The notes: generated from the letters alone by a model not told the origin. A stretch of 64,000 nt of DNA from Ignavibacteria bacterium (GCA_016707005.1 JADJIQ010000005.1:460585-524584), one strand, 5' to 3'; shown: positions 2,980 through 58,745, counted from the stretch's first letter. Program-made: numbers and translations.

Positions 2980-3055
2980 GCGAATAGCGAATAGCGAATA
3001 GCGAATAGCGAATAGCGAATAGCGAATAGCGAATAGCGAATAGCGAATAGCGAAT
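2980..3055. repeat. Tandem heptamer array (GCGAATA) of about 11 copies, immediately after the dnaK stop.
   Basis: The sequence shows the perfect tandem run gcgaatagcgaatagcgaata.... The same heptamer appears in both orientations at 58595-58745. Confidence 0.9.
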
Positions 3056-3062
3056 TCTAAGG

Positions 3063-3098
3063 AGCCTGTGTTGGAGAGATCCGGCACAGGCTTTTTTT
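3063..3098 (+). terminator. Rho-independent terminator downstream of dnaK.
   Basis: A hairpin gcctgtg...cacaggc is followed by ttttttt. Confidence 0.6.
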
Positions 3099-3109
3099 AT
3101 GTAGAAGCA

Positions 3110-4063
3110 TCACTTTGTATGAACCCATCCGAATGCGCGTTGAATGGCGGCATCATATCGTTGCGGATCGGAATCCCTGAGACCTACGTGGCCTGCGTTA
3201 GGGAATACAACGAATTCTCGTTGATACGGCGATGGCGACATTGCCTGTGCAATGCGTTCACCATGAGCAAGTGGGACACGTTCATCCATGGATCCATGGA
3301 GAACGAGGAGGTGGCACTTCAGTTGATGAACAACATTCATTGGGGCTATTGAGACAGGCTCAATGCCTAAGATCTCGCAACTCCGGTCTAAAGCCCACGT
3401 GCCAACGAACGGGATACGATACCCTGTTTTCGATTTCACGAGGTCATCAGTAAGACTCCACACGTCTGAATATCCACTTTCCTCAATAACGAGATCCACG
3501 ATGCGATGATCGGATCGTCCATCTAGATCCGCAGCTAGGATCGCGGTTACAGCACCCATGGAATTCCCCCACAATATCACAGGACGATTCTCCGGAAGCG
3601 GCTTTAACGATCTCATGATCGTGAGAAGATCCATACTCTCTCGATATCCATAACTGCAGGTGCTTCCACTGGATCTGCCATGACCTCGTTGATCGAACAT
3701 TACTACCTCAAAGCCCTGCTCTAGAGACCAAGCCGCAGCACCAAGGCCCCCTTCCTTTTGACTGGCGATACCATGAACAACTATGACTCGCCCCACAGGC
3801 TCGCTTTCTATCGGTCTGAGCAATCGAATCTCAAGAATAGTGGAATCATCTGTCCGTAAAACAAATGTCGAATCGAATCTCGATTCAGGAAGTGCCGCTT
3901 CTGCTTGTGCTATCCATGTTGCCATCGCAACAGAGTCAGGCCTCATTGGGTGAACGATTCCCCATGGTAGTTCATTAACAGCATATGAATGGAGTTGAAA
4001 CACCCCATAACCAATGAAGGCAACAATGATCCCGGCTATAGTGATGGCAGTTTTGTGTTTCAT
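3110..4063 (-). CDS. Membrane-anchored alpha/beta-fold hydrolase.
   Basis: A GNSMGA nucleophile elbow (GxSxG) is present with HG and FDQRGHGRSSG motifs and an N-terminal TM helix. Start is placed at MKHKTAI (4063). The upstream extension of ORF 3110..4210 is a translation of the 8-mer repeat array. Confidence 0.8.
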   Translation of the reverse strand: MKHKTAITIAGIIVAFIGYGVFQLHSYAVNELPWGIVHPMRPDSVAMATWIAQAEAALPESRFDSTFVLRTDDSTILEIRLLRPIESEPVGRVIVVHGIASQKEGGLGAAAWSLEQGFEVVMFDQRGHGRSSGSTCSYGYRESMDLLTIMRSLKPLPENRPVILWGNSMGAVTAILAADLDGRSDHRIVDLVIEESGYSDVWSLTDDLVKSKTGYRIPFVGTWALDRSCEILGIEPVSIAPMNVVHQLKCHLLVLHGSMDERVPLAHGERIAQAMSPSPYQREFVVFPNAGHVGLRDSDPQRYDAAIQRAFGWVHTK

Positions 4064-4109
4064 AGAAGTCCAATATGCTACTAGAAATCCACGAAATCTG
4101 CCATGAACC

Positions 4110-4152
4110 CCGTAACTCTGTAACTCCGTATCTCCGTATCTCCGTATCTCTG
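4110..4152. repeat. Tandem octamer array of CCGTAACT/CCGTATCT-type units, about 5 copies.
   Basis: The sequence reads ccgtaactctgtaactccgtatctccgtatctccgtatctctg. It lies between the hydrolase start and the next gene. Confidence 0.8.
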
Positions 4153-4235
4153 TTAAGGTTTTGTCAAGGTGCACCTGAGTTCCCAACCCCCGATGTTCAT
4201 GTAGCAACATCTGTTCACACTCTCTTGGTAATGGT

Positions 4236-6266
4236 ATGAATCAGTCGGTACGGTTGGTGATTTGTGTTTGTGCATTCGTTCTTGGGATGATCTCTCTTGG
4301 CGCACAAACGAATGATACTTTGGTTTACTTAAATATGTACCGAGTTTTTGAGTATGATTTTCGAATTGAGAAGGTGCGGATGAACTTTGCATATGTCGAC
4401 AGTACGTTCATTTTTGGACTTTATGATGATGGGACCATCTTGTCCGGTCCGGCAGATGCTCGGGTTCAACGAACGTTACTCTCTCCAACTGCCTCGGTCT
4501 TCGTACCGGATACTGACACGCTCCTTGCCCTAGATTGTGGCGGTCTGTGGCTTCTGCCTATTGGATCCGATGAGCCCCGTACTCGCATCATGACCGTTTC
4601 AACAGACAGCAGGTTTGTGACGGCGATCGATCATGGTTTTGCATTGAGACGTGGGGGCAAGGTCTATGTCCACCACGGGTACGCTTCAGAACCGAGTGAT
4701 TCAATTGAACATCCGGAGACCGATGACTATTGGTCTGTTAGTGCAGACGGGAAGAGATCTGCATCATGGGGGTTGGGGCCTACACCGGCAACCGTGCAGT
4801 GGTCTGTAGGTGATGTAGAAACTGTTGATCTGTCTACCAATGGATACACGAGATGTGCTGTGCTGTCGGATTCCGTGATCGCAGCCTGGAATTCGAACCT
4901 GTTTATCTCCCGCGACCGCGGGCTTACATGGCACCACTACAGAGCACCGGAGATCGATCCATCATTGCCAGCCGAGGAGATTACCTATCGATCGTTCCGC
5001 AGCATTGAAGTGAGAGGCACGGATATCTATGTGGGGTTTGTGCCGGAAAAGCTAACCGAGATGTATCACTACTTCTCTTCTGATCTTGGCCTCACATGGC
5101 GGAGATACACTCCTGCAACAGCGCCCGTCCACAACAATGCCATTCCATACAGGGCCGGCATTGCCTCTCCTCGCAATGCTGCAGGCGTCCGATTAGTTAC
5201 CGATACAGATGGTACACGCATCGTAGAATCATTGTGTGAGATTCATGAAGCTGAAGGTGCCTGGAATGAGTACTCCATCGTGGAGCAGCGCGTGTCCGTA
5301 ACGGACACACTCTATACCTGGAGCCACACACTTGACTCCTGCATTGCCTTTGACCCGGGTGCAGACAGCACAACGTCATGGATTTGGTTCAACAATGGGA
5401 TACTCCTTACGAAACAACACTCTGAAACCATCTTCACTGAACGTGCCCTCCCAACTAGCCCCCTTCTCTCATGTTGGGTAGTTGATTCTGTAACAGCGAT
5501 CATCAAGGGTGAGGAAGGGGCGTATGTAACACATGACGCAGGAGCAACGTGGACGGCAGATTCCACCTATGATGGACTGCTTGCCTTTACGCCACTTATG
5601 AACGAAACACAACTCAGTCTCTGGCGCACGGCAACTGCCGGACTTGAGATCCGCTCATCGGATTCGATCTCACCGAATGGCACTCTTGTTGCCAGCCTTC
5701 CCAATACCGAAGCATCACAATTCATGATATCCAGGAATGGGGCTTCTGGTTGTGTGGTTCAGGCCGTAGGCGGTTCTGAATGGACCAGTCTTTCCATCGA
5801 GAACTTCACAGATCCAGGGTCGAACGAGCAGTTCTCAGACCACATGGTCCGATTCGCAGACAGCCTCACATCCAGATTGGCCACCGGACCGCAGCTCAAT
5901 GAAACAACCATCATCCCTCGGATCCACGAAGAACATGGATGGGTATTTGGAATCTCAAACGACGCCGAAGTCGGACTTCGGCAATACGCCATCCCCGTAG
6001 GAGTATCTGAATCAACTTCTATAGAGTCAGCATTGTCCATCTTCCCCAACCCAGCAAAAGACCTGTGTGTTATACGGTCCACGGACGGTACAGAGATCAC
6101 ATCGATACAGGTGTATTCTTCGATTGGCACCCTTGTGCTTTCTCAAACTCCTAACGGTTCGGAAGCACAACTTGACACCTCCACTCTTCCGGCTGGTGTA
6201 TACCACCTCTCCGTCATCGGTCCGGTCATCGGGCACACCTCCTCCCGAATCTGCGTAACCCCGTAA
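4236..6266 (+). CDS. Secreted protein with BNR/Asp-box repeats (glycosidase-like or Ycf48-like beta-propeller) and a T9SS C-terminal sorting domain.
   Basis: It has a signal peptide and Asp-box motifs (SRDRGLTW, SSDLGLTW, HDAGATW). The C-terminus (SIFPNPAKD...GVYHLSVI...) matches the Por-secretion tail pattern. Confidence 0.75.
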   Translation: MNQSVRLVICVCAFVLGMISLGAQTNDTLVYLNMYRVFEYDFRIEKVRMNFAYVDSTFIFGLYDDGTILSGPADARVQRTLLSPTASVFVPDTDTLLALDCGGLWLLPIGSDEPRTRIMTVSTDSRFVTAIDHGFALRRGGKVYVHHGYASEPSDSIEHPETDDYWSVSADGKRSASWGLGPTPATVQWSVGDVETVDLSTNGYTRCAVLSDSVIAAWNSNLFISRDRGLTWHHYRAPEIDPSLPAEEITYRSFRSIEVRGTDIYVGFVPEKLTEMYHYFSSDLGLTWRRYTPATAPVHNNAIPYRAGIASPRNAAGVRLVTDTDGTRIVESLCEIHEAEGAWNEYSIVEQRVSVTDTLYTWSHTLDSCIAFDPGADSTTSWIWFNNGILLTKQHSETIFTERALPTSPLLSCWVVDSVTAIIKGEEGAYVTHDAGATWTADSTYDGLLAFTPLMNETQLSLWRTATAGLEIRSSDSISPNGTLVASLPNTEASQFMISRNGASGCVVQAVGGSEWTSLSIENFTDPGSNEQFSDHMVRFADSLTSRLATGPQLNETTIIPRIHEEHGWVFGISNDAEVGLRQYAIPVGVSESTSIESALSIFPNPAKDLCVIRSTDGTEITSIQVYSSIGTLVLSQTPNGSEAQLDTSTLPAGVYHLSVIGPVIGHTSSRICVTP

Positions 6267-6423
6267 CCATGTAACCCCGTAACCATGTAACACCGTAACC
6301 ATGTAACACCGTAACCCCGCCACATCCCAACACCGGGCGAGGCGGGGCCTCGCCCCTACGCCGTAACCCCGTAACCATGTAACCCCGTATCTCCGTATCT
6401 CCGTATCTCGGTATCTTCCCGAT
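6267..6423. repeat. Octamer tandem repeat array (CCGTAACC/ATGTAACA/CCGTATCT units) with an embedded GC-rich hairpin.
   Basis: About 16 octamer units flank the perfect 9-bp palindrome gggcgaggc-ggg-gcctcgccc at 6339-6359, which is terminator-like for the upstream plus-strand gene. Confidence 0.85.
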
Positions 6424-9464: not shown

Positions 9465-12320
9465 ATGAATCGAACCCTGACGCTTCTTTGCGCCACCGTA
9501 TTCCTCGTTGTCTCTGCATTGTCACAGACTGACAATCCACATGCACGGCATATGGAGCGCGCTCATCCAACGCCGCTTCGCAACGTGAACTACGATGGTC
9601 TCACGTACATGGTGCCGATGCTCACGGAGAAGGTCTATCCAAGCCTCTTCCTCAACGTGAACATGATCGTTGAAGAGACAGATCCGCTTCCGGCACAGAA
9701 CGAATCGTCCATCGCCGTCAACCCACGCAACCCACGTCAGCTCATTGGTTCGGCTGTAGACTACCGGCTCAGCTCCTCTACATGGGCCTACTACTCAACT
9801 GACGCTGGTGCAACGTGGGAGAATATCACACTCGGCACTGCTCGTATCGGTTGGGCATCAAGCAATGACCCATCTGTGTGTTTTGATCATAACGGCAAGG
9901 GATACCTTGTCTACGGTGGTTTCAAACGCGAAGGCAATGTGCAGTTCGGCGAGAATGGCGTCTTCATCAGCTCCACTACGGATGGTGGAAAGACGTGGGG
10001 CATGAAACACACGGCCGTGATCATACACACCGGTCCACAGACGGCCGACTCAACATTCGAAGACAAGTACTACATCCACGCCGACACAGCTGCTACATCA
10101 CCGTATCGTGGTCACCTCTACATTCCGTGGAAACGTGTTGTCAACCGCGACTCTTCAACACAGATCGTGATCTCGAAAAGCACGGATGAAGGGGCTACAT
10201 GGTCCACCCCCACCTACGTTAGCGATCGGTTCCCGCGTACATCTGAAGACACTACTTTCGGACAAAGTTTTCCTCTTGCACGCACAGGTCCCGATGGTTC
10301 TGTGCACCTTGTTTGGAACAGTGGAACAGAAGACGCGCTTCGATACGCACGATCTGTAGATGGTGGTGCTACATGGTCAGCACCGCGGATCATTCACACC
10401 TACAAGCCCTTTGGTACAAAGAGCACGATCAACGGTCAAACCAACTCCCGTGTAAAAGGTGTTGTGCGAGCGGAGTGTTATCCAACACTAACCATTGACA
10501 ACACCGGCGGCGCTCGCAACGGATGGTTGTATCTGACGTGGGCAGCAGACAACTACCCCAACGTCTACTTCTCGCGTTCAACAGATAATGGTACTACGTG
10601 GTCACCTGCTCGGATCGTGCATAGCGACACCACGAACGACCAATTCTGGTCATGGATCTCTCTCGATCCAACCTCCGGAGAGATCGCCATCATGTATAGT
10701 GACAGTCGCGATGACGTAGACAACATCCTCGTCAACACCTACGTGAGTTGGTCATCAGATGGCGGTACCACCTGGCTTGATCGTCGCATCGGCGATGATG
10801 TGAATGACCTACGTCGCAACCCATTCCAAGGCAACACCTTTGCCGGTGACTATTCCGGCTGCGACTTCTACAACGGCGTTGTCTATCCATCGTGGGTGGA
10901 TATGCGCAATACGTATGTGAACCCTGCCGACAACGATGTCTTCACAGCCATTGTAGATACACGAGCACCAGGAGCCCCTTCCACTTTTGCTGCTACAACC
11001 ATTCCCAACCGTCCAACACAGATCGACCTCACGTGGTCTGCTGTAACATCACTTGCGTATGGTCAGCCCCTTCCCCCCGATGCACGGATCATCATCCGCA
11101 GAGACGGATCACCGATCGATACACTCGGCGTAACGGCTGTAGCAATGACCGATACGGGGCTCATCAAGTACCAACTCTACACCTATACACTTACTGTTGT
11201 TGCAGGGGGCAGATCAAGCACACCACGCGTTGCATCGGCATATGCAGGGGGCTCCAAGGAACTCCAGGCGCCACGATTGGTCTCTGCGGTAGGAAGCACA
11301 AGTCGAGAGACCGAGATCGTTGTTGACCTGCCGAAACTTCGTCTCGACAATGTGACACAGATCATCAACCTCGCTGGGCTTGAGTCTGCGCTGACCGAGC
11401 AAAAGTTCGCAAAAGCACTTGCCGTGACCGACACCGGTACTCGCACAACGCATCTCGTTACGCCGTCAGAGGACGGTTGGTATCGCGTGCAAGAACGAGT
11501 CCTTGATTCAGAAGGCAATACGAGTCCGCTCAGTGACTCACTTTGGATCTACACCGGATCGTTGCAGAGCGATGCGCAGAACTTCACCACAGAACCGCGG
11601 TACCACAAGATCCTCGGCAATTGGGGCAATGCAACCAACTTCTATCGGTCTGCTCCGGCATCGTATGCGCATAGTCCTAGTGGTGCATACCTTCCAAACA
11701 GACGGGACACCGTGCAGATATTTCCGTTTGCCGTTTCGTCGGCCGTGATCCCTGAATATCCAACTCCGGCGCTAACGGTTTCCGTTGCAGCCTTCATTGA
11801 TCCAAGCGACACGATGTTCCTTGAGGTATCAACCAATGGAGAGCGCGGTTCCTACTCAGTGCTTGAATGGTGGAACTCCTCGCGAGATGCGCGCTGGAGC
11901 GATACTACCAAGGGCGAAGACGCATGGCGGACATACACAATGGTTCTGCCATACGAGCAAAAAGACGACACACTTCACTTCCGCCTGCGCTTCCGAAGCA
12001 ACGCATCACGGCAATCAGATGGCTTCTACATGGATGATCTTGCTTTTGACTACATCAACAGCGTCGACGAAGAACAGTCAGCTATCTCCACCATCGCCCC
12101 CATTCCAACCTCGGCATTTGTGAACGTCACCTTGCAGAACGATGCACCCGTCACACGCTGCGTGGTTGTTGATGCCCAAGGCACAACCCACAACGTTTCG
12201 TGGTATCAGTCGGGCCTCTCCCTTATTGCTAACGTTCAGCACCTTCCCCAAGGTGTCTATACTATCGCTATCGATCGTACTTCGTCTACGTCCCACTCCC
12301 CATTCCTCATTCTCCGCTAA
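9465..12320 (+). CDS. Secreted BNR/Asp-box repeat protein (sialidase-like or glycosidase-like) with an FN3-like region and a T9SS CTD.
   Basis: It has a signal peptide and multiple Asp-boxes (STDGGKTW, STDEGATW, SVDGGATW, STDNGTTW, SSDGGTTW). The C-terminus has a CTD pattern (GVYTIAIDR...). Confidence 0.75.
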   Translation: MNRTLTLLCATVFLVVSALSQTDNPHARHMERAHPTPLRNVNYDGLTYMVPMLTEKVYPSLFLNVNMIVEETDPLPAQNESSIAVNPRNPRQLIGSAVDYRLSSSTWAYYSTDAGATWENITLGTARIGWASSNDPSVCFDHNGKGYLVYGGFKREGNVQFGENGVFISSTTDGGKTWGMKHTAVIIHTGPQTADSTFEDKYYIHADTAATSPYRGHLYIPWKRVVNRDSSTQIVISKSTDEGATWSTPTYVSDRFPRTSEDTTFGQSFPLARTGPDGSVHLVWNSGTEDALRYARSVDGGATWSAPRIIHTYKPFGTKSTINGQTNSRVKGVVRAECYPTLTIDNTGGARNGWLYLTWAADNYPNVYFSRSTDNGTTWSPARIVHSDTTNDQFWSWISLDPTSGEIAIMYSDSRDDVDNILVNTYVSWSSDGGTTWLDRRIGDDVNDLRRNPFQGNTFAGDYSGCDFYNGVVYPSWVDMRNTYVNPADNDVFTAIVDTRAPGAPSTFAATTIPNRPTQIDLTWSAVTSLAYGQPLPPDARIIIRRDGSPIDTLGVTAVAMTDTGLIKYQLYTYTLTVVAGGRSSTPRVASAYAGGSKELQAPRLVSAVGSTSRETEIVVDLPKLRLDNVTQIINLAGLESALTEQKFAKALAVTDTGTRTTHLVTPSEDGWYRVQERVLDSEGNTSPLSDSLWIYTGSLQSDAQNFTTEPRYHKILGNWGNATNFYRSAPASYAHSPSGAYLPNRRDTVQIFPFAVSSAVIPEYPTPALTVSVAAFIDPSDTMFLEVSTNGERGSYSVLEWWNSSRDARWSDTTKGEDAWRTYTMVLPYEQKDDTLHFRLRFRSNASRQSDGFYMDDLAFDYINSVDEEQSAISTIAPIPTSAFVNVTLQNDAPVTRCVVVDAQGTTHNVSWYQSGLSLIANVQHLPQGVYTIAIDRTSSTSHSPFLILR

Positions 12321-12366
12321 CCCTATCTAACATTCTAACACTCTAACCCTCTAGCACTCTAACGCA
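12318..12366. repeat. Short tandem octamer array of CTAACNNT units between convergent genes.
   Basis: The sequence reads ctaaccctatctaacattctaacactctaaccctctagcactctaacgc. Confidence 0.6.
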
Positions 12367-12676
12367 CCTTCACCGTCTTAATTGTGTTCGTTTGCTTCCC
12401 ATCAGACACAACAACGAGATACATTCCTTGTGCCCAATCTGCACAGTCGACCACATACTCCTGTCGCCCTTCAATAGGGCGGTATCGTGGAAGAAGGTCA
12501 ACAAGGCGAACACCGCTTGTAGATACAACTTCGAGCTGTTTAACATCTTGTTCTGAACCGCGCATTACTGAAACCGAAACAATGAGTGTTCCGTCAAACG
12601 TTCTAGGCTGTGCATCAACTGCGATACCCGATTGAAATACCGTCATTGCCACGAGTATTTGCGTAATGAACTGCAT
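12359..12676 (-). CDS. Small ORF encoding only a signal-peptide-like N-terminus plus a T9SS C-terminal sorting domain.
   Basis: The C-terminal 60 aa (GVRLVDLLP...AQGMYLVVVSDGKQTNTIKTVKVR) is a textbook CTD. Its ATG overlaps the stop of the upstream 830-aa gene (TAATG). Confidence 0.5.
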   Translation of the reverse strand: MQFITQILVAMTVFQSGIAVDAQPRTFDGTLIVSVSVMRGSEQDVKQLEVVSTSGVRLVDLLPRYRPIEGRQEYVVDCADWAQGMYLVVVSDGKQTNTIKTVKVR

Positions 12677-15129
12677 TATTCTGCTCCATGCACCGAGATG
12701 AACGTTTCTCCTGTTCGTGAATTCGTAAGTAGGTAGATCCCTTGCATAGATGATTCTGGCGACACAACACTTCTACCGAGAACATCGTACATGGCAATGA
12801 CGTTCTGATGCCACATTGAGAGGGCCTGATTCCACGGAATACAACGCAATACTACTTTGTTCAGCAACTCACTACTCTCGTTAACCGATGTTGAGTTTGA
12901 TGATCGGAAGCACCCAGTAGTTGTATTCAAATACAAGATATCATTAGAGCCATTGTAGGTCATGCTTATGACTTCTCCAAGTGGCTGGGCAGAAGTAGGC
13001 TGAAAGTCTCGCCATGTGCTACCTAGGTCGTCGGAAGCGATGATGCCGGTAGGCATGGCGAGTAAAACTGTAGAGTCTGACAATACAACTCCATCCCCTC
13101 CCGTGAATGTTAGTCCTCTCGACAAGGACTGTCGATGGGTTTCATTCCAGTCGTTCCCATCTATGTCGAACACAGTGACAGCTGCATCGTCAATAGTGTG
13201 ATTCACTGATTCAGGGTCAAGAGGGGTTGGTATGAAGGACGTATCACGAATAACACGAGAAGAAAGAGTCGCGATCTTTCCGTTCGGTAAGGCTACCGAA
13301 GTGACGAAGTAGGACAAGTCCCTAACTTCTTTGCGTAAACGCCATGTGCTTCCATTGTCTGAGCTTGCAAGAACGTATCCACTTAACACAATCTTGGCTT
13401 CAAGAGTCTCAGCATCGCGTACATTAAGTCCAGATACAAATGCTACCAGCCTTCCATTGCCCGCATTAATAAGAGACGAAACGTACCTCGATTCTGCCCG
13501 CTCATTGATTGGCAGAAGATCTCCAAGACTAAAGGATGAGGTTAGTGTCCGTCCTTCAATTCTCGATATGCCACCCTTTACACCAAAGACGATTGATCCG
13601 TCGTCACTAACAACCACTGACGACGTTGTGTCTTGGAAGAGAGTATCATACTGTAGCTCCATTGGCTCGATCATACGAAGTTTCGTTCCTGGAGTCAGAA
13701 TCTTGCTGCCGAACGCTACCATTTGCCTAAAGCCAAGCGCAGTGTAGTCATATGGGCCATTAGTAGTTTTATCACGAACAAACCCGCTGACAGATCGGTC
13801 CTCCAACAAGCCCACACCATTAACAGATCGAAGCAAACAATCTGTTACCAACTTACAATGCACAACTCCATCTTCAGTGACAACAGAATTCAGGATCTGT
13901 TCTGGACCGAGCACATCAACGTCGTTTAACAATGAAGCTACACTCACATATCCGAATGGGTTAGCTAATACCAGACACCTACTCATTATTAAAAGTATAT
14001 TCTGCGGAGCAAGCCTCCGCACATCGGTAACGTGCGGATACATAAGTTGAGAGGAATCCGCAATTCGAATCATTGGAGAGCTCGCTGGATCGATCTCTAC
14101 TATACTATTACCCCAACGGCTATTGGATGAGGGCTTCAAGACCTGAGATTCTGCCACGTCAGATGGAGTGTAAGTGATATCTGGTGCACTTCCATACTCC
14201 ATCGGTGTCATACTTGGTCCGAACTCACCCCCTGCAATCCATCGATGAAAACTAGCCGGGCTCGTAGTTGAGTTCCTCATAAAAACGATGCCATTGCCAG
14301 ATGAAATGATTCTCATGCGGGAACGATTAAACTCATGTTGAACACCATCAATAGCAACACTTGTCTTGCACGAAACAGATCCTTCTGCCAATGATCCGAA
14401 ACATAAGGTATCCGGTTCTTGCCCCTTTCCATTCTTCATCACTAATATGGATTCCATACCCAATAGTGCGATCGAATGAACACTGCCACTACCTGCATCT
14501 AGGTATGGGGCGTTGTAGACCTGTCCATTTCTGACGATCAGAAAGTCGCGCAATGCTTGGTTGCTCAATAGTATTGCACTTCGCAAGGATCGGTTACGAT
14601 CACCGTAACCGTTCATCTCTATCCAATTGTCACCACAGTCTGTTGATATAAAGCTAATGGGCATTGTTGTATCTGGCGCTTCTTTGTGACGGCCGTACGC
14701 ATACATAAGTCCCGCGCCATGCAGTACAACTTCAGTGATTACATACGGAGTATTCCGAATCTGTGTATGTACTGTGCCCGCTCCCGTACGTGGGATAATG
14801 ACGTATCGCCGCGCATCAAAGCCCTCTTGAACGACAACAACGGAACCATCTTGGCAATCGGACGGCTTGTTTTTTTCGAAAGCAGGATCATTTACAATGC
14901 CATTAACCATTGAAAGCCTGAGGTGTGTTGCGTCAAGCCTCATTGGGGCGAGACGTTGCACAATCAACGGTATGTTATCATCAAACTGCGATGGCATTAA
15001 CTCAACGGCTGTTCCCGTACCAACAATCATTCGTTGCTGGTAATGCACTTGAAAGTCAATTTGACTTACTACCGCCGTGTTGCCTATTGAGAGACAAGCA
15101 AGCACAGCGAGCGTCAGCCCGATGTTCAT
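12676..15129 (-). CDS. Secreted BNR/Asp-box beta-propeller protein with its own CTD-like C-terminus.
   Basis: It has a signal peptide (MNIGLTLAVLACLSIG) and Asp-boxes (SSDNGSTW, SDDLGSTW, STDCGDNW). The tail is CTD-like (NVIAMYDVLGRSVV...QGIYLL). Alternative starts lie at 15156, 15159 and 15168. Confidence 0.7.
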   Translation of the reverse strand: MNIGLTLAVLACLSIGNTAVVSQIDFQVHYQQRMIVGTGTAVELMPSQFDDNIPLIVQRLAPMRLDATHLRLSMVNGIVNDPAFEKNKPSDCQDGSVVVVQEGFDARRYVIIPRTGAGTVHTQIRNTPYVITEVVLHGAGLMYAYGRHKEAPDTTMPISFISTDCGDNWIEMNGYGDRNRSLRSAILLSNQALRDFLIVRNGQVYNAPYLDAGSGSVHSIALLGMESILVMKNGKGQEPDTLCFGSLAEGSVSCKTSVAIDGVQHEFNRSRMRIISSGNGIVFMRNSTTSPASFHRWIAGGEFGPSMTPMEYGSAPDITYTPSDVAESQVLKPSSNSRWGNSIVEIDPASSPMIRIADSSQLMYPHVTDVRRLAPQNILLIMSRCLVLANPFGYVSVASLLNDVDVLGPEQILNSVVTEDGVVHCKLVTDCLLRSVNGVGLLEDRSVSGFVRDKTTNGPYDYTALGFRQMVAFGSKILTPGTKLRMIEPMELQYDTLFQDTTSSVVVSDDGSIVFGVKGGISRIEGRTLTSSFSLGDLLPINERAESRYVSSLINAGNGRLVAFVSGLNVRDAETLEAKIVLSGYVLASSDNGSTWRLRKEVRDLSYFVTSVALPNGKIATLSSRVIRDTSFIPTPLDPESVNHTIDDAAVTVFDIDGNDWNETHRQSLSRGLTFTGGDGVVLSDSTVLLAMPTGIIASDDLGSTWRDFQPTSAQPLGEVISMTYNGSNDILYLNTTTGCFRSSNSTSVNESSELLNKVVLRCIPWNQALSMWHQNVIAMYDVLGRSVVSPESSMQGIYLLTNSRTGETFISVHGAE

Positions 15130-15155
15130 CGGGCTGACGCAAGCTTTTAGGCACA

Positions 15156-15875
15156 TCATGGTGCACAATCCGGATCTGTGTTACAACATTCAAGCCTCCT
15201 CGGGCAACTTTCAATAAGGAAGCATGGCTCGTAGCAGGATGAGTTAGAATAATCACATTCATTATAATCTGAAACAAAGCAACAGCCATTCGCAGCCCTC
15301 TCCCAGCCAGTCTCAATAATACAACAGCCATCGCCGCACCTCTCAATGCAATTGGTGGTGCTATTGAAACTCACACATTTGGGGAAGATCACACTCCAGC
15401 AGTAAATCGATCCCGTTGCCAATGGCACGTTTGCACCTAGGTAGCCAGGATTCTTACACGGATCAAACCTGCACAGAATTGCCTCAAACACTAGCTTGAC
15501 GTCCAAAGGGGAGGGAGGTGGATCTATAAAACACACCTTTGTGATGTGTGTGTATTGATTCATTTGCAGGTTGGAACAGAGACCAGGTAGCAATTGACCA
15601 ATTCCAGGCCTTGTTAGACAACCAAAAATCTCAATCTCATAATCACGGCCATCAATGCAGATCGTCAACTGACCCATTGAGGCAGGTTCATCACAATCAC
15701 AGGCACTTGTCATCGGAGATTCTACGGCAGATCTGATCCCTAGCCCAACTACACTTAATGCGCCTGGTTGGCTATGCCATGCGGCGGGGGGGGTAATAGA
15801 ATACGCCGTCATTATGCACGACGTAGCAATGAATACGGCCAGAGTAGCTCTGGCTATTACATGAAACCCTTTCAT
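15156..15875 (-). CDS. Cysteine-rich secreted hypothetical protein, about 240 aa with 30 or more Cys.
   Basis: It has a signal peptide (MKGFHVIARATLAVFIATSC) and dense CxC, CC and CxxC spacing. A GGAGG-like SD and a TAnnTTTG-type promoter lie upstream. Confidence 0.55.
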   Translation of the reverse strand: MKGFHVIARATLAVFIATSCIMTAYSITPPAAWHSQPGALSVVGLGIRSAVESPMTSACDCDEPASMGQLTICIDGRDYEIEIFGCLTRPGIGQLLPGLCSNLQMNQYTHITKVCFIDPPPSPLDVKLVFEAILCRFDPCKNPGYLGANVPLATGSIYCWSVIFPKCVSFNSTTNCIERCGDGCCIIETGWERAANGCCFVSDYNECDYSNSSCYEPCFLIESCPRRLECCNTDPDCAP

Positions 15876-17769: not shown

Positions 17770-17872
17770 GGAACAAACTTACCCCCTCAAAGCTTTACAG
17801 GAAGGTTAAAATCAGGTAACGTCACGGGGTAGTGCGAGGGCGAACCTTCACTATCTTTCACGTGGACCCTCT

Positions 17873-40700: not shown

Positions 40701-40745
40701 CACACTCCGTTGTCGCGAAGAGAACGCGGAATCGAATCGATTCAT
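28791..40745 (-). CDS. Giant T9SS-secreted adhesin-like protein of about 3984 aa, built from dozens of Ig-like/beta-sandwich domains.
   Basis: A continuous 12 kb ORF with a signal peptide (MNRFDSAFSSRQRSVGRWLQALLLTVITTAGLL; GGAGGA SD at -4). It has pervasive repeats of about 100 aa (YSTPA..GSTYAWTVSG...TLTV.ET) and a classical CTD (RVFPNPSNGQFSIE...GVYNVVVT...VVRLVRR). Alternative starts lie at 40799 and 41012. Confidence 0.85.
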   Translation of the reverse strand: MNRFDSAFSSRQRSVGRWLQALLLTVITTAGLLTGISVKAQTVDLLASPGPNPVCAGQNTTLRATLTAPGINIGYAVNGAAPGYAFAAPGGAEVNLALDDDEVSAEQNVAGQFRFHGRLIDLAVDGFYVGSNGFITFRNDPLAVQIAPRNLAAPGAGATYDAIYLANTDLSPQVGGQIWYELVGTTLIVTFDDVPYFYPNPPGPIPPGAPNPATVSVQLVLHLEGDADAGQIDIFVEQIDDNALNVQAAQDQHTIGLLSLCQPPQATIGQDQRPGAGGPFLNEVYSWVPGPLALAGTQTAFFRCPTPNVPCVGAGGTALGTIGGAGPTWDLVTALPAATVDRTWYYYGITTLNNCTTVQTADYAVVANAQPVAIGSITGTQNICQGATVQYVAVPSIATSTLAWSTTAPGATIILSGAQNQIADIQYPAGGSNAGTSYNIQVTETGPAPTNCSAISTFVNRVTIYSVPVGPLTVAPGAICAVATGSNNVTYSTPAGYGSYAWAFVTNTIGATFPAGSTNTKVVTVTNQPVQPAAAATVTVQVQAFNGPGNLCPGPVLQTSFTVNPLPPTNAVAGSVASVCAGTNMTYSITNNGGTGLVGVAGNTYTYTASGLPFVYTGGSAGYPNGTPLAANVVANQSRQLNWTAAGTGTMTVLETTASGCTRTYSTTTTVNPLPTPSIVGSNTPCQFVPATLGNPSYQSAPNPIQYSYTLNTVTVGNSYRWAVTGGGGTIVAANAATTTALPATSTTTPGNVNLGVSLITVQWSAPGAGTVTVDERTALGCNASSTLNVTVIATPPTGAFVLTGALATCASPAAPVAYTATGAGSHSFTISGGTPQAPFVGGYALGGPGVTGVGPGGFSVQWGAAGTGTISHEYTEGGCAAVKTYTITINPNPTFSIGAPAPTLCGNQAHTFSTLALVNGGGAPTYLWAEALDVDGIGTLGVNNNPTMIVTFTNPPAATSSYSLTLTVTNTTTTCAATVTQAFTINQVPSAPVITPVATACAASPQNPVSTTNYTITTAQAGSLAVNVTGAPVGTVVTGSPFAQPVGAVARTITWGQLPQNAALVPQSVVVTINAQLTSAAGCVSLVGSTNTTFYARPAPAPITFAPVLPFCVNTPVPINVAVATNGGAGQPGVNYVWVPGGGIVLNAAGPAPDLTRQITNLGGAGPKSITVTGVDAISGCGTSTVTNFVVDPVPTPSIVINVPTAGLNPNVVCQNLVDPVGMPHAGPFTYTYDFATPQVLGNTYSWQISNGYIVAYSTNNGGAYTTIAGNVAPVASQLLPGTLNASRVRVVFYGASPAKIKVTEVHPGGCGATTPDYNVTLNVIPTQYALGVTPQDICNTGAQTAPLTLANSQVGYSYQVQRSTNGGGTWANATVAAQNGTGAALNFVVPTADLAFTTVAPAPTVYLFRVVASNLAPVCGPYIVSTGDATVNVHQIPNAALAVTIAPTPVCFGDLVNVTVAGSENWVTYELFRRQIRDNATGAALPPAAFVSTGISAVGTGGALLLADNTNPVGGYPLLAAANYEYEVVATSNTNPPACFVILTQHPTATVFALPLVQANSYTPNPVCWEQPVIFTQAGSQDGVTYEILRNGVSMAPAVTFNGTGGAIGPISIPALSVLPTNPAVPTIVNFEVRAQLRTGAGVYARPIPASACPVSDAPGTDVTVNPKPVASFSGSNPACGPSVGTYTAATPSFGGWAATYDWKILGVVDNTVEIPVTTNPPTGTTPLVGNNTGFGTLNPFVTTWGTHLLSCNGVYNPLPVKVRMIETNVFGCPDTAVVTVTINPTVADATISGPTTACIYGGFEEHLTTYTVARAPGCVFPAGTTYLWNMPTGPVVGVIRSGQNTTSIVTEWHATGGTNIGQIQLAVTLPPSHGGCVTNLTYDVTVYPQPQPVITGPTQVCQNSTGSPTSTSIYTATLFTGDTYKWDVVGGTITTPGGATGTGVVGNPSTITAVNGNSITVTWGTTPNPNATITLTQTSVVGCLNRTTLNVNVNPTPNPVINGPGVVCDNAVASYSTANNAPANSYAWTMLGGSNATITAGANQATATVLTGAIGGGNSFTLQLVETTNATTCSKTVTRTITIVPTPAPTITRLTPGGATGGSCLNQVIQYGQTDPTAGTFSYKWTATSGIISDVTGNNPGPDNGTTVYVKWNTVGTGTITLAKWHTSSQCTTTVSQNVTITNPPAPAITGPTNVCGEQIATYSTPNVVGNTYSWSFSNGSIVSGSGTNALTIKFTNPGVGSTLSSNVTVTETNTLSGCTGSATVLVTIRYQPQVQTITGPTQVCAYNAVTNPGNVAYSVANNIGATYQWTVTGATIVSGATTNAVQVRWTTIGTQTLTVVEKEATGLCSATSTLNVAVTYMPAPSITGNLNACSNSAETYSTPAVAGSTYAWTVSGTVADRTTSGLTNNSITVQWLTAGTRTLTVIETAGLCTATATANVTVTAKPAPVITRVSPLGLLNQACLDETITYSTPNGGSTTYLWTVTGGTITGVNNANAVTINWTAIGNQTLSVVETSTVNTGCVGTTSLSVSVEEQPNPVISGGTPVCSGSTQTYSVTAVAGHTYNWSITGLAADRTITTSVTGSSMSVTWNNAGSYTVSVLQTNNSGNCSRTANLVVTVQQTPTATAISRVSGTPLNQACNGETISYSTPANGASSYLWTVVGGSINGSATGNVVSVTWQTVGNNTITVTETTTGTPCFKTVTQNVAVTRMPTPTISGNLNACSNSTEVYSTPAQAGSTYAWTVSGTATDRTIASGTTNNTITVLWLTAGTRTLTVTETAGLCVVTTTANVTVTAKPTPVITRTSPAGLLNQACLDETITYSTPNLGGTTYLWTVTGGTITGVNNANAVTVNWTALGNQTLTVVETATANTGCVGTTSLNVSVEEQPNPVISGGTPVCSGTTQTYSVTAVPGHTYNWTIGGTAADRTIVSSITGSSVTVTWNNAGTYAVGVTQTNVSGNCFRSATLNVTVQQTPTATAISRVTPGGAVNQACQGQTITYSTPFVGTSSYLWTATGGVINGTATANTVSVTWQTIGNNTLTVTETTTGTPCFKTVTQNVAVSYTPTPNITGSTVVCINKEHTYSTPAVPGSTYNWVITPTNAFATIAGYPTSNTITVRWIQPGLHTMSVTETALGGFCFTTTTVNIRVNPIPTPDIQSATGYGNPITRRPGIVCNNSTHVYSVTPTPGNVFQWVVTGGTITAGSNTNQITVLWGAAGNGTIACTETVPGSDCITTDTDTILIRPTPTPVVTGQVNPCGNSVQDYTTPFVSGNAYTWTVVGGTYVNLAPNTIRVTWSAPVWPNTTAATVSVREDVADVLPAGTCFGVNTLNVTIRPIPPTPSITGPSPVCATDLSDSPATINTATYTSSIPVITAGSGSLQPSWTVTNGVIVSGQGTLTIGVQWANSGLTPITGNLTVTHTSSFGCSATGSLSVTINPLPNPVISGPRSACQNSLQNYSTPGIPGNTYSWAVSGGNIIRAGQGTPNVTVEWTLPGAATLTVTEVNGFLCTVLNTINVTVNALPNAVLTASGQTTFCQGGDVTLSAPIGFSSYIWNTGETARSIVVRTTGKYWCTVTDENGCSNSSDTIQVNVFPSTLPIIAINAPTTFCEGGSVTLTAPSGFNAYLWSNGAQTQSIVVTQSGSYTVTVADNNGCTGTSTEVDVVVNPTPAPVLTLIGSANLCSGDSVEVRAPAGFVSYTWVSTSGTNYGTARSIIIRQTDTVYCQVVDVNGCVGSSDTVGITVAPVAPPVITANGPTTFCEGGAVTLTAPAGYASYIWSNGATGRTITVQNGGEFWVTVTNNTSCPANSTKTVVTVNSLPVIPTISRMGDVLTANSAVAQSWQWFRNGTMIAGATAKTYTVALPGSYRVEIADNNTCASVSEAFDVILTDVDEDVVAGRQAELRVFPNPSNGQFSIETTITQAGPVRIELVNAVGELVMTLNEAANGGAFRTSVDMGILANGVYNVVVTTGSERWVVRLVRR
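31500..33650. repeat. Intragenic tandem duplication inside the giant gene: two units of about 1.05 kb (about 350 aa) at roughly 85-90% nt identity.
   Basis: Hand alignment shows, for example, 32221 ccgcccgttactgtccagaggtacgttgta... against 33271 ccacctgttaccgtccagaggtacgttgtg..., an offset of about 1050 nt. Protein blocks RMPAPSITGNLNACSNS... and RMPTPTISGNLNACSNS... match. Boundaries are approximate. Confidence 0.7.
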
Positions 40746-41217
40746 ACGATCCTCCAAATGAGACTTTGAAATACTGTTACTCTTACTGTTATTCTTCATA
40801 GTTGACGTGGTCTGTTCCCCATTCACAAACACCAATTGGCGCCCGAGGCGCCTTGATTTTTCAGATTGTGCATTGTCGCGTAGAGTCATAATGTCCTTCC
40901 GAACCGTTGGATTGAAACGGCACGGCGCACAACACCCCCGTTGCCAGAGGCGTGTACATCGTCGCGAAAATAGGTCGACGGAGCGGTTCCACCAAACACG
41001 ACTTTGCCACAAAGCATCATATATGCCATGGGACTAGCGTTTTTCGCGAATATGTTCTGCGTCGTCTGAGTCATTGTCTTCGATCAGCGTTGTTTTTATG
41101 TGTTGCTACGTGGTTCTACGTAGACAAACCTGTGAAACAGATTCCACACCACCAAGGACATTGGACCAGATCACGGTGGGTCACCCCCCGAAATCCAGCC
41201 CACCTTGATGGCAGGAG

Positions 41218-54070: not shown

Positions 54071-54235
54071 GGTTTTTCAGTTACGGAGTTTGAGAGATAC
54101 GGAGATACGGAGATACGGGGTTACGGGGTTCGTCATCTCGAGCGAAGTCGAGAGACGAAACTCATCGGTCGTAGTTCCCAAACATGTTGAGGACTACGAC
54201 CGGCCCCGACGTGCGGGGCCGTGTAGTGTCGTCGC
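54071..54235 (-). promoter_or_regulatory. Structured intercistronic region between atpE and atpF: an octamer array (GATACGGA/GTTACGGG) plus two stable hairpins.
   Basis: The repeat run gttacggagtttgagagatacggagatacggagatacggggttacgggg is followed by stems ggtcgtagt...actacgacc and ggccccg...cggggcc. This may be an mRNA processing or stability element that sets c-subunit stoichiometry. Confidence 0.5.
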
Positions 54236-55926: not shown

Positions 55927-56178
55927 TTACTCCCGTTCGTTCTGATCAAGCTTTCGTTGTTTTTCTTCGTCGCCCAGTCGTTGAACCGAGCGTAAGAACT
56001 GAACAAGGCCAACAACACTCCCTACCGATGCACCGATGATGAGGATCACCGGTTCCGTTGAGGCAATGGAATCGATCCACCACCCTATTCCGCCAAGCAC
56101 TATCACCGTGGCCGCCATCTGGGTTCCCAGAAGGAGGTAGGGTGCAGCCTGTCGCATGGCAGAATCAGTAGACTGCAT
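55927..56178 (-). CDS. AtpZ-like putative F0F1-ATPase accessory subunit (ATPase_gene1 family).
   Basis: The pattern AAPYLLLGTQMAATVIVLGGIGWWIDS... matches the typical small two-TM protein found upstream of atpI in FCB-group atp operons. The alternative start MRQAAPY lies at 56157. Confidence 0.6.
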   Translation of the reverse strand: MQSTDSAMRQAAPYLLLGTQMAATVIVLGGIGWWIDSIASTEPVILIIGASVGSVVGLVQFLRSVQRLGDEEKQRKLDQNERE

Positions 56179-56224
56179 TATTGAGCCGAGTTGAAATGGC
56201 GCGCAAAAATAGGTCGATATGGGG

Positions 56225-57589
56225 CTAAAAACCCAATTCTCGCAGTGCATTTAGCACTGCATCCGTGTAGATGTTGGATGTTTCGCCATACCACTTCCCC
56301 TCGGGCACGAATCTGATGGCTCCGTAGGTTGAGGGATTAAGGGGCTGAATAGGACTTGTGGCTACGACAGTTGTCTCATCGATTCGGAATTCGTTGTCAA
56401 CGTCGTAGAGGGCGATCGTACACCCCAACTCGGTCAAACTGCGCTCGTCAATTGGAGCCTTTTCGTACCCAAGGAGTACAAAAGGAACTCGGACCTTGAC
56501 GACGTAACCGTCTACGCGGGGCGCAGTTACCACTCGAACGAGTTGCACGGCTTCTTCCTGGGCAGGGTCGAGTTCATCGGTGGTTTTGACCTTGATACTT
56601 GGTCTGCGATCGGCAAAATCACCGATGCGAACGGAGAAGGCGAACAGGCCAGAATCGCTGCTTGACCGAACAACAAGTTTGTTCCGATCGACCTTTGAGA
56701 TGTACCGATTGCCCCCTACTTCCTGGGCCGGGGTCACATCCAACCAAATATCAAGTTTATCTGCGGCGCAGGTGTCGCACCACCCGGTAATGATGCTGGA
56801 ATCTCGAACGGCGATGCGGAAATACAGAAAATCGTCATCGTATACCACTCGCGCACGGAATGATGCATCCTCCTCACCTTGCCACCAGAAGGCTCCATTC
56901 ACAACGTTTCGAACAGCTCCGATCCCTACTTCAGGGACGAAACCTGCAAAGACCTGCCGGCCTCTGCTGTAACAGGGAATGGTTAGGTACTCTGCCGCAA
57001 AGGCCGGATCACCCTCGGAGGTGAGGAATCTCTCGCGCGTCTCGAGGGTCTTATAGGATCGGAATGTTTCGTGACCGAACGATTCGATACGGTCGCTCAC
57101 AAACTCGTCAACGAGGATCACACTTCCCTCTGCAAACCGATATCCGCGGATGGTCCAATCCTCTGCCCTGCGCTTCTGGGTAACGTACGCCGTTACCTCC
57201 TTGATGACCACGCCGATCTCGAGCGGGAGATCGATGTACTGCAATGGCATCTTCGAGATGTTTACAAGGAAGCCCTCATTGTCAACGAAAAGATAGACCA
57301 CACACTCACGTTTTCGAGTGCCGAGGATATTCACGGACATGGCAAGATCGTAGAAGCCATCTCCGCTGAAATCACCAACGTCCCATCCCCAGATCCGGTA
57401 CTGGGAGCCTTGTGGCATTGATGACCGAACGTCCGCGATAAGGTCTTCAGCAAAGTATGGATCGATCTTACGGGCGAACTCATCAAACTCCATCCCAGAC
57501 TGCGCTGAGAGAGAGAGGGGGCTTGCCATGGTTATAGCAAACACACTGAGAACAGAGGCAAGAATGATCGGCAGAGATTTCACGTTCAA
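56225..57589 (-). CDS. Hypothetical secreted protein.
   Basis: It has a signal peptide (MNVKSLPIILASVLSVFAITMASPLSLSAQ). It overlaps the upstream kinase gene by 4 nt. Confidence 0.55.
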   Translation of the reverse strand: MNVKSLPIILASVLSVFAITMASPLSLSAQSGMEFDEFARKIDPYFAEDLIADVRSSMPQGSQYRIWGWDVGDFSGDGFYDLAMSVNILGTRKRECVVYLFVDNEGFLVNISKMPLQYIDLPLEIGVVIKEVTAYVTQKRRAEDWTIRGYRFAEGSVILVDEFVSDRIESFGHETFRSYKTLETRERFLTSEGDPAFAAEYLTIPCYSRGRQVFAGFVPEVGIGAVRNVVNGAFWWQGEEDASFRARVVYDDDFLYFRIAVRDSSIITGWCDTCAADKLDIWLDVTPAQEVGGNRYISKVDRNKLVVRSSSDSGLFAFSVRIGDFADRRPSIKVKTTDELDPAQEEAVQLVRVVTAPRVDGYVVKVRVPFVLLGYEKAPIDERSLTELGCTIALYDVDNEFRIDETTVVATSPIQPLNPSTYGAIRFVPEGKWYGETSNIYTDAVLNALRELGF

Positions 57590-58584
57590 ATGGTATCGGC
57601 TGAAGAGAGGACGATGTCCCTCACTTCGATATGGTCTGCCTTAAGCCGTGCACCATATTGAGCAACGACCTGTGCAGACGCATACGATGCCAACCTACCG
57701 GCATGTTCCGGATGATGGCGATGAAGCACACCATAGAGGAAGGCACCGGCATACATGTCTCCGGCACCGGTGGTATCAACGGAGGTAACCTTATAGGCCG
57801 GCACTTCAACATCGAGTCCATTCCACCGTACCCGAGATCCATGGGGTCCGGCCGTCAGAACAACATTCGGATACCGATCGATCAACTCGCGGTATGCTTC
57901 GTCCACAGTCTCTGTGCCGGCAAGAGAGGTCCCCTCGCGTTCATTGCAGAAGACGAGGTCCGCATTCTTGAGAACACTGCGCAGCCTATCTCCGAATACA
58001 TCAATGATGAATCCGTCAGAGCAGCTCACAGCAACGTTTGTACCGTGCTTACGCGCATAGAACATCGCAAGGTCCACTGCCTCAGCACCGTTGTCATCGG
58101 TGAGTTTGTAGCCTTCTACATAGATCCACTCGCTCGCCTTGATCAGGTCTTCGCTGATGTTATTGCGAGAGAACTCGGTATTCACTGCAAGAGTGGTATT
58201 CAAAGTCCGCTCACTGTCTGGCGTAATGAGAACCAGGCACGATCCCGTGCTTGCCCCCTTCACCTGTTCAGCAGCAAGAACGATTCCCAGGTCCTTGAAC
58301 TCCGAAGCGTAGAAGTCACCGAATCGATCTGCACCAAGTAAGGAGCTGTAGGCACCACTTCCGCCGAATTGGGCGAACGCAATGATGGTGTTTGCGGCCG
58401 ATCCACCACTGCAATGATGCGCTTCCCGGTCACCCAGGGCCGTGATCATCTCTTGCTGACGAGCGGTGTCTGTTAATGTCATCGCGCCCTTTGTCACTCC
58501 GAACTGTTGAAGCTCGGCATCGGTAACGCGGTATTCGAGGTCTACAAGGGCATTTCCAACCCCTGTGAGAAGGATGTTTTTCAC
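57586..58584 (-). CDS. PfkB-family carbohydrate/nucleoside kinase (adenosine kinase-like).
   Basis: The PfkB signature DTTGAGDMYAGAFLYG is present with an N-terminal ...NILLTGVGNALVDL. The probable GTG start is at 58584. The ATG-initiated extension to 58641 in the ORF track is a translation of the GCGAATA repeat array. Confidence 0.8.
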   Translation of the reverse strand: MKNILLTGVGNALVDLEYRVTDAELQQFGVTKGAMTLTDTARQQEMITALGDREAHHCSGGSAANTIIAFAQFGGSGAYSSLLGADRFGDFYASEFKDLGIVLAAEQVKGASTGSCLVLITPDSERTLNTTLAVNTEFSRNNISEDLIKASEWIYVEGYKLTDDNGAEAVDLAMFYARKHGTNVAVSCSDGFIIDVFGDRLRSVLKNADLVFCNEREGTSLAGTETVDEAYRELIDRYPNVVLTAGPHGSRVRWNGLDVEVPAYKVTSVDTTGAGDMYAGAFLYGVLHRHHPEHAGRLASYASAQVVAQYGARLKADHIEVRDIVLSSADTI

Positions 58585-58594
58585 AGTGCGAAAA

Positions 58595-58745
58595 TAGCTA
58601 TTCCTGAATAGCGAATTCAGAATAGCGAATAGCGAATTCAAGATTCGTTCTCTTGATGTTACCTCTCTGAACTCAGAACTCGCTATCCGCTATTCTGAAT
58701 TCGCTATTCGCTATTCGCTATTCGCTATTCGCTATTCGCCATTCG
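58595..58745. repeat. Inverted GCGAATA / TATTCGC heptamer arrays forming a long hairpin or cruciform between ddl and the kinase gene.
   Basis: The left arm gaatagcgaattcagaatagcgaatagcgaattc is complementary to the right arm gaattcgctattcgctattcgctattcgctattcgc. It is the same heptamer as the array after dnaK. Confidence 0.85.

Follow-up and report, generated by a model that had tools for sequence, protein, structure and literature searches.

Eight intergenic loci in a 64,000-nt stretch of DNA from an uncultured wastewater Ignavibacteria bacterium (GCA_016707005.1 JADJIQ010000005.1:460585-524584), which belongs to metagenome-assembled genomes (MAGs) of the activated-sludge type, carry head-to-tail arrays of 7-8 nt units. 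In the following this whole stretch is called the window, and the arrays are labelled A1 (2980), A2 (4110), A3 (6254-6416), A4 (12318), A5 (23529-23619), A6 (25305-25539), A7 (54071-54130) and A8 (58595-58751). We consider it likely that they form a family of long simple sequence repeats specific to this lineage, which originated by slippage and which behave as variable-number tandem repeats with steps of 7-8 nt. The arrays exceed chance expectation, are restricted to intergenic DNA, differ between strains by whole units, and their units are exchanged at fixed positions.

Detection and genomic context of the arrays

Tandem Repeats Finder and, independently, a detector of our own were applied. 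The initial annotation of this DNA had described tandem arrays of 7-8 nt units at eight intergenic loci, and Tandem Repeats Finder returned arrays with a period of 7 or 8 (16 where the unit is doubled) at all eight of them; our own detector found eight arrays in the window and none or one in each of 20 third-order Markov simulations of it. Although about 92% of the window is coding, every 7-8-mer array is intergenic, the overlap with gene ends amounting to 58 array nucleotides in total. Of the 17 spacers that measure 30 nt or more, 8 carry an array, and 733 of their 1917 nucleotides (38%) are array sequence. The local density of eight loci in 64 kb corresponds to roughly 125 loci per Mb; for satellites with units of at least 10 nt the bacterial maximum is about 23 per Mb, a value that is only loosely comparable (PMC6749651). 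No Rfam match overlapped any array.

The GTAAC/GTTAC core, previously ascribed to most of the units, was found in the unit at six of the eight loci, where the chance for a random octamer unit would be 1.6%, whereas the locus at 12318 (A4) is built on CTAAC. The pentamers GTAAC/GTTAC reach a density of 54 per kb within the arrays against 2.3 per kb outside (expected 1.95 per kb). It was also recognized correctly that two loci consist of GCGAATA units (A1 and, in inverted blocks, A8) and that inverted blocks occur, namely in A5 and A8. The array at 25332 (A6) is present as described, but it is a triple array which holds a TGACGGTA sub-array as well. Octamers of GTAACTGA (G+TAACTGA), the commonest unit of the window, stand at 25408-25431.

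The contexts of the arrays are mixed and include 3' untranslated regions (UTRs), an operon interior, convergent gene ends and sites upstream of promoters (Table 1). A3 fills the spacer between two co-directional genes, A4 takes up the whole 38-nt spacer between convergent genes, A5 is placed between the convergent TonB-receptor and paaD genes, and A6 sits between the stop of a BNR gene with a type IX secretion system (T9SS) sorting domain (25515) and the promoter and start of paaB (25253). A7, read by Tandem Repeats Finder as 54082-54126 with GAGATACG/GGTTACGG, reaches within a few nucleotides of the atpF ATG, its last full repeat block ending about 12 nt before this codon. The stop codons of the upstream genes often lie within the first array units (TAA at 6264, TAA at 12318, TAG at 23529 and TAG at 58746). 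T9SS sorting domains were found on several proteins encoded near the arrays. DnaK and AtpF of the window have identical counterparts among the proteins listed by NCBI under an 'Ignavibacteria bacterium' MAG.

Table 1. Positions and composition of the tandem arrays and associated elements in the window
Feature	Position	Strand	Remarks
A1, GCGAATA direct array, 10.9 copies, 100% matches	2980-3055	+	Tandem Repeats Finder; begins 4 nt past the dnaK stop
Canonical intrinsic terminator of dnaK, hairpin and T-run (context; separate from A1 and downstream of it)	3058-3100	+	From folding
A2, composite direct array CCGTAACT-CTGTAACT-(CCGTATCT)3, 5.1 copies	4110-4152 (Tandem Repeats Finder: 4110-4150)	+	The BNR/T9SS gene starts 85 nt further downstream (ATG at 4236)
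A3, first array, CCGTAACC/ATGTAACM, 16-nt higher-order unit, 3.9 copies	6254-6319	+	Contains the TAA stop of gene 4236-6266
A3, middle, GC-rich hairpin GGGCGAGGCGGGGCCTCGCCC between the two direct arrays	6335-6355	+	-19.3 kcal/mol, z -2.5
A3, second array, (CCGTAACC)2-ATGTAACC-(CCGTATCT)3-CGGTATCT	6351-6416 (Tandem Repeats Finder: 6361-6416)	+	Ends 7 nt before the ATG at 6424
A4, TCTAACAC-type array, 4.8 copies	12318-12366 (Tandem Repeats Finder: 12326-12363)	+	Contains the TAA stop of gene 9465-12320
A5, left arm, AGTTACNN block of inverted pair	23529-23571	+	Contains the TAG stop of the TonB-receptor gene
A5, right arm, GTAACTNN block of inverted pair	23582-23619	+	Tandem Repeats Finder
A6, triple array: GGTAGAGA (weak), TGACGGTA 7 copies, GTAACTNN 19.6 copies, ending in heptamers GTAACTA	25305-25539	+	Tandem Repeats Finder
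A7, (CCGTAACC)2-(CCGTATCT)3-...CCGTAACTG on the mRNA strand	54071-54130	-	Within the ATP synthase operon, between atpE and atpF
A8, one arm, GAATAGC block of inverted GCGAATA pair	58595-58637 (Tandem Repeats Finder: 58606-58637)	+	Between the ddl stop and the pfkB start
A8, other arm, TCGCTAT block, 10.3 copies	58680-58751	+	Contains the TAG stop of ddl (58746)

Variation between strains

The same region was obtained by exact-protein look-ups from at least ten other assemblies, which are 94-99.7% identical to the window; L-numbers (L001, L124, L144 and so on) denote the loci from other assemblies and metagenome contigs that were compared with it. Single-base differences within arrays were excluded from the counts as possible long-read errors. 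A1, A3, A5, A6, A7 and A8 vary between strains, A4 is invariant across six strains, and the clean array indels are multiples of 7 or 8 nt (-14, -16, -16, +32 and -14). The copy number differs among strains of one species, as in variable-number tandem repeats. The comparison of copy number at orthologous loci, which the initial annotation had proposed, revealed whole-unit variation among these near-identical assemblies, and this variation fits the slippage-type mechanism that was likewise suggested there.

A1 has about 8 copies in L137 compared with 10.9 in the window and is interrupted in L138, A2 has 6.2 units in L001 (a difference of one unit between strains), the first array of A3 changes by 16 nt in either direction, and A8 is shorter by 14 nt in L128. 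Substitution of the units themselves was also observed. Octamers make up A5 in four genomes, whereas in two (L122 and L125) the inverted pair consists of heptamers; four extra units (+32 nt) are present on one arm only in L123, and the array is wholly absent in L124, where the spacer is 24 nt. The length of the A6 spacer region varies from 171 to 318 nt between strains (window: 267 nt), higher-order block duplications occur in it, and its left-hand units are TATGACGG in some strains and AGTGACTA in others. The units of A7 differ in L129 and L131, with a unit substitution in the latter. Several arrays agree base for base between assemblies made independently, and this speaks against an assembly artefact; the arrays are real, fast-evolving variable-number repeats.

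Gene content differs between strains beside A2. The alpha/beta-hydrolase gene (3110-4066, minus strand, about 1 kb) is present in the window, L137 and L138 and absent in L001, L134, L135, L136 and L139, the left breakpoint of this indel lying just past the dnaK terminator and the right one within A2. The neighbouring BNR gene, too, has a divergent allele of its 5' half (to about 5303) in some strains.

Arrays outside the window and in relatives

Upstream of the window the same species has an array of GCTAATGT that separates convergent genes and whose copy number is 3.9-6.9 according to strain, and an array of TCACTCCG was found on a metagenome contig with 99% DnaK identity, upstream of the window region. 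All three unit families also occur on L041, a contig of 2.3 kb from another Ignavibacteria MAG. It has no genes in common with the window, its own being tRNA, coaE, thioredoxin, pterin dehydratase and enolase. There (GCGAATA)4 and (GTAACNNN)6 fill the dehydratase-enolase spacer, include the TAG stop of the upstream gene and end 1 nt before the enolase ATG, and an inverted GTTAC/GTAAC pair ends 8 nt before the coaE ATG. The genome-wide distribution that had been suggested may hold in part, but no array was found in the 10 kb past the right end of the window, nor within the window between 28.8 and 54 kb, so the array density is patchy. Two doubts had been attached to the initial proposal, namely that the arrays could be assembly artefacts or could be confined to the window; both were dispelled, since the arrays recur in independent assemblies and outside it.

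In a deeper comparison of 80 dnaK loci from metagenomes the array density ranged from 0 to 4.1 per 10 kb without any trend with DnaK identity. Array-rich and array-free genomes are interspersed among the relatives, and each rich genome has its own units; in two array-rich relatives, L152 and L191, every array has a different unit. GTAAC was never present in the arrays of the relatives' dnaK loci, which indicates that the GTAAC core is species-specific.

The 3' spacer of dnaK contains 1.7 copies of GCGAATA in L144 (91% DnaK identity), two copies of ACAGCGA in L141 (96%) and five copies of a degenerate RRTAGCG in L152 (89%), and these proto-repeats, set against about 8-11 copies in the species of the window, can be read as a birth series for this site. 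In the spacer of L144 orthologous to A3, before gene 6424, there is an ATTAGTC heptamer array instead of the CCGTATCT octamers of the window, and octamers of the CTCGTCAT type stand at the site orthologous to A2. Both units next to the 6424 start, CCGTATCT in the window and ATTAGTC in L144, resemble the conserved native TATCTTCCCG beside the ATG, and this likeness points to an origin by duplication on the spot.

In distant relatives with 68-89% DnaK identity (L153 3674-3780, L177 4655-4700, L207 11926-11970, L191 11926-11985 and L152 6311-6380) the interval from the dnaK stop to its terminator likewise holds arrays of short units, which are unrelated (CAGTAGT, TGTGCTGG/CCACAGA, TGAAACGTCAAAAG). 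With arrays there in several unrelated lineages, the dnaK 3' end is a candidate for a favoured array site. Short-read metagenome contigs end within arrays (L140 11904-11959, L153 3702-3780), and the arrays probably break assemblies of this lineage.

Predicted structure and sequence signals

The two inverted pairs were predicted to form very long hairpins as RNA: A5 folds at -44.6 kcal/mol on the plus strand (z -6.6) and at -40.8 kcal/mol on the minus strand (z -5.5), its alternative haplotype at -34.7 kcal/mol (z -5.1), and A8 at -67.5 kcal/mol (z -8.8). The other six of the eight loci are direct arrays and structure-poor. The first array of A3 has a minimum free energy of -2 kcal/mol, all of 200 shuffled sequences folding at least as well (z +2.5), and for A4 and A7 the centroid structure has no base pairs. 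According to these predictions the direct arrays provide, as a side effect, structure-poor RNA or DNA right upstream of some start codons, and arrays whose halves have opposite polarity provide very long hairpins downstream of stop codons.

A scan for intrinsic terminators, which found canonical ones at 28737-28766, 61108-61139 and after dnaK, called none of the arrays. In the hairpins of A5 and A8 the loop exceeds 8 nt and a T-run is missing, and no U-tract follows A5 on either strand; the combination of GC-rich stem-loop and U-tract was not found in any array. A loose Shine-Dalgarno-like 4-mer precedes just 15 of 42 genes.

Relation to known repeat systems

Long simple sequence repeats (LSSR) with units of 5-11 nt have, in the account of Mrazek, Guo and Shah (2007) that is given in PMC4679880, a sporadic distribution, and polymerase slippage was proposed for them. 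So far as that account goes, the arrays of the window fall within this class: units within 1-11 nt are repeated head-to-tail, the arrays are longer than expected by chance, they occur sporadically among relatives, and units whose length is not divisible by three are kept out of coding sequence. Heptamers are prominent in both, but in the window they are outnumbered by octamers; furthermore LSSR are treated as a descriptive class and not as a sequence family, whereas in the window a few related units occur at many loci with a very high local density.

TAACTGA direct repeats are intergenic in Beggiatoaceae, Cyanobacteria and five Bacteroidetes, and a translational role was proposed for them (MacGregor 2015, PMC4679880). 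Like the arrays of the window they are mixed with other heptamers and differ by whole-unit indels between close strains; they stand often in forward orientation a few nucleotides from the starts of genes without Shine-Dalgarno sequence, housekeeping genes included (PMC4679880). The period in the window is 8, its Ignavibacteria lineage is not among the hosts listed in that report, and inverted block pairs are prominent in the window, whereas for the BOGUAY genome only a single indirect repeat was described (PMC4679880). In strict terms the arrays do not belong to the TAACTGA family, since the window holds no two-copy tandem of TAACTGA in any register on either strand. As to the forward orientation, the five start-proximal arrays of the GTAAC type in this lineage agree with that pattern; A6 is reversed, A1, A4, A5 and A8 are at gene 3' ends, and other taxa show no bias.

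The comparison with cyanobacterial STRR (short tandemly repeated repetitive) heptamers, drawn in the initial annotation, was apt in so far as the arrays are short-unit, intergenic and lineage-specific with a few recurring unit families. STRR likewise form intergenic tandem arrays of short units, with a few defined unit families at many loci and hairpins between genes, and transcript stability and translational coupling were suggested as their function (PMC2670836). Hairpin-forming intergenic arrays are represented in the window by A5 and A8. The host is a (filamentous) cyanobacterium in the case of STRR and an Ignavibacteria bacterium with T9SS in ours, where the units are mostly octamers. The STRR consensus units, which Mazel and co-workers reportedly gave in 1990, are CCCCAGT, TTGGTCA and CAACAGT; tandem copies of these units were absent from the window, so the arrays are not STRR in the strict sense.

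The repeats had also not been recognized as a described family for this lineage. A full-text literature search combining Ignavibacteria, tandem repeats and intergenic returned no paper, in agreement with this, but the class itself has been described elsewhere as LSSR and TAACTGA repeats (PMC4679880). The arrays represent a new lineage and unit set of this known bacterial class of simple sequence repeats.

Origin of the arrays and alternative explanations

Short native proto-repeats in intergenic DNA were probably the starting material of the arrays, which slipped-strand mispairing at replication and unequal recombination would then expand, contract and remodel. Selection would keep the arrays out of genes: 7 and 8 are not multiples of three, therefore an array within a gene would shift the reading frame, and the arrays are confined to spacers. 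Within the spacers they may grow until they touch both neighbouring genes, and units with TAA, TAG or TGA would often provide the stop codon of the upstream gene. Such growth would explain the precise placement at stop and start codons, which the initial annotation had taken as a sign of selection or of a slippage-prone mechanism with a defined target and which would come largely from very short spacers and from arrays supplying the stops. Inversion of polarity might arise easily, because AGTAACT and its own reverse complement AGTTACT differ in the central base alone. The sporadic occurrence of arrays among relatives supports this origin, being the pattern described for simple sequence repeats of 5-11 nt in the portion of the literature summarized in PMC4679880. 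Since arrays stand in every kind of context, a single dedicated function is argued against, and most of them are probably neutral spacer filler.

Several observations weigh against a purely slippage-driven, neutral origin. The same small set of units recurs at unlinked loci: the GTAAC type at six of the eight loci compared with the 1.6% expected, GCGAATA at three loci when L041 is included, and the composite (CCGTAACC)n(CCGTATCT)3 three times at unlinked loci without common flanks. All five start-proximal arrays of the GTAAC type in this lineage have the same orientation, four of them within about 25 nt of the start (6424, atpF, and eno and coaE in L041) and one at 85 nt (4236). Both haplotypes of A5 retain the inverted, hairpin-forming layout though their units differ. 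Furthermore, five of the eight sense-strand units have no self-pairing at all compared with 14-18% of composition-matched units, a difference that is suggestive and not significant. The unit recurrence, the orientation, the layout of A5 and the self-pairing bias give a hint of selection or of a sequence-specific process, and pure local slippage leaves the recurrence of unit families at unlinked loci unexplained.

One alternative is a cis-regulatory function of the arrays in translation or mRNA stability, the transcribed direct arrays at gene starts acting as unstructured, Shine-Dalgarno-independent landing sites for the ribosome or for an RNA-binding protein, as MacGregor proposed for the TAACTGA repeats. 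One factor recognizing the units would keep them alike across loci, and unit families do recur at unlinked loci. In front of eno, coaE, atpF and gene 6424 the arrays stop 1-12 nt short of the ATG and are GTAAC-forward in each case, the direct arrays are structure-poor, Shine-Dalgarno-like sites are few (15 of 42 genes), and GTAACTGA includes TAACTGA, for which a like adjacency to starts is known in Beggiatoaceae and Flexibacter (PMC4679880). However, many arrays are far from starts, as in the dnaK 3' UTR and where genes converge; A6 has the reverse orientation and lies upstream of the promoter box of paaB; relatives have unrelated units at the same site, and the copy number drifts among strains. 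The self-pairing bias is suggestive and the sample in this lineage is five cases, while elsewhere no orientation bias was detected: among 120 GTAAC-octamer loci in the matches listed from species-representative genomes, those between co-directional genes divide into 26 in forward and 20 in reverse orientation (p = 0.46), which yields no general orientation rule for GTAAC arrays across taxa. Taken as an explanation of the arrays altogether, we hold this idea to be rather unlikely; by analogy with the TAACTGA repeats, a translational role is possible for those arrays which abut start codons.

A related proposal is that the recurrence of units, together with their forward placement at the starts of housekeeping genes lacking Shine-Dalgarno sequences, reflects a sequence-specific system, either a binding factor that acts in translation or mRNA stability or an activity that seeds and copies units between loci. 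With the TAACTGA repeats of Beggiatoaceae, Cyanobacteria and Bacteroidetes it would be held in common or be a case of convergence. We regard such a system as unlikely. A dispersed mobile element was rejected, as the flanks of the three composite arrays have nothing in common, and nothing was found in support of transposon target-duplication footprints.

The initial annotation had suggested terminators or insulators, and inverted pairs could end or stabilize transcripts at gene ends. The hairpins of A5 and A8, predicted at -41 to -67 kcal/mol (z -5.5 to -8.8), follow right after stop codons, the alternative A5 haplotype folds too, and stabilization of transcripts was suggested for the hairpins of cyanobacterial STRR (PMC2670836). 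Nevertheless, the terminator scan called canonical terminators elsewhere and none of the arrays, A5 has no U-tract on either strand, and six of the eight loci are unstructured direct arrays. L124 does without A5, L123 has its four extra units on a single arm, termination at A7, within the ATP synthase operon, would do harm, and A1 is already followed by a separate canonical terminator. This function was not borne out and seems decidedly unlikely. A G-quadruplex considered for GGGGTTAC was also discarded, each array having just two GGGG runs.

In the contingency loci of host-adapted pathogens, slippage-prone repeats within open reading frames (ORFs), or in promoter or 5' UTR spacers of surface genes, switch expression, and the copy number of short tandem repeats differs between close strains there as it does here. 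That length steps of 7-8 nt switch or tune adjacent surface proteins (T9SS cargo, TonB receptor) by phase variation is very improbable: secreted or outer-membrane proteins are encoded beside some arrays (the BNR/T9SS genes 4236 and 25515, the TonB receptor), and A2, with its one-unit strain difference, is followed downstream by a non-coding element that is conserved and by the gene of a T9SS cargo protein, but no array is inside an ORF or between recognizable promoter elements, most are downstream and not upstream of surface-protein genes, and housekeeping genes (dnaK, atpF, ddl/pfkB, eno, coaE) are flanked equally.

Significance of the strain series

How STRR-like heptamer families arise and what they do has been asked ever since they were discovered. 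For the simple sequence repeats described here many near-identical long-read assemblies are available, and their orthologous sites record the birth, expansion and loss of arrays as well as the replacement of units and the inversion of polarity; this strain series could permit the measurement of turnover rates and tests of slippage against a sequence-specific model. From a practical point of view the arrays are strain-resolving markers, and the stops inside them alter annotated gene ends. If the start-adjacent arrays were functional, they would represent a Shine-Dalgarno-independent initiation element in a bacterium of the FCB group.

Additional observations beside the arrays

Between A2 and the ATG at 4236 there is a non-coding stretch of about 80 nt (4153-4235, GTTAAGGTTTTGTCAAGGTGCA...GATGTTCATGTAGCAACATCTG) that is nearly unchanged in L144 (DnaK 91% identical) despite the differing arrays beside it. 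It has no Rfam match, and it may be a promoter, a leader or a small structured element. The atpE-atpF spacer (54131-54235, minus strand) has, besides A7, three stem-loops (GGCCCCGCACGTCGGGGCC, GGTCGTAGT...ACTACGACC and TCGTCTCTCGA...TCGAGATGACGA), which are invariant in the six strains compared.

Bacteroidetes-type -7 promoter boxes were recognized on the minus strand 12-13 nt before the ATG of two genes: TAAATTTG (25259-25266), placed between A6 and paaB 13 nt before the paaB start, and TAAGTTTG (17774-17781) at a response-regulator gene. Boxes at such a short distance point to leaderless or near-leaderless mRNAs of both genes. The paaB box is kept as TAATTTTG in L124.

A 105-aa ORF (12359-12676, minus strand) with a T9SS C-terminal sorting domain alone comes directly after an 830-aa ORF (12676-15168, minus strand), base 12676 being common to both. 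This split is called alike in all strains; possible explanations are a frameshift that is conserved, translational coupling and a split gene.

In a 4073-aa ORF with PKD_6 and T9SS sorting domains (28791-41012, minus strand) an internal block of about 2.1 kb differs between strains, the window segment 31530-33671 aligning twice, which indicates that the copy number of the gene's own repeat domains varies. In other assemblies its called lengths extend from 1556 aa (complete) to more than 4000 aa, several being cut at the locus end.

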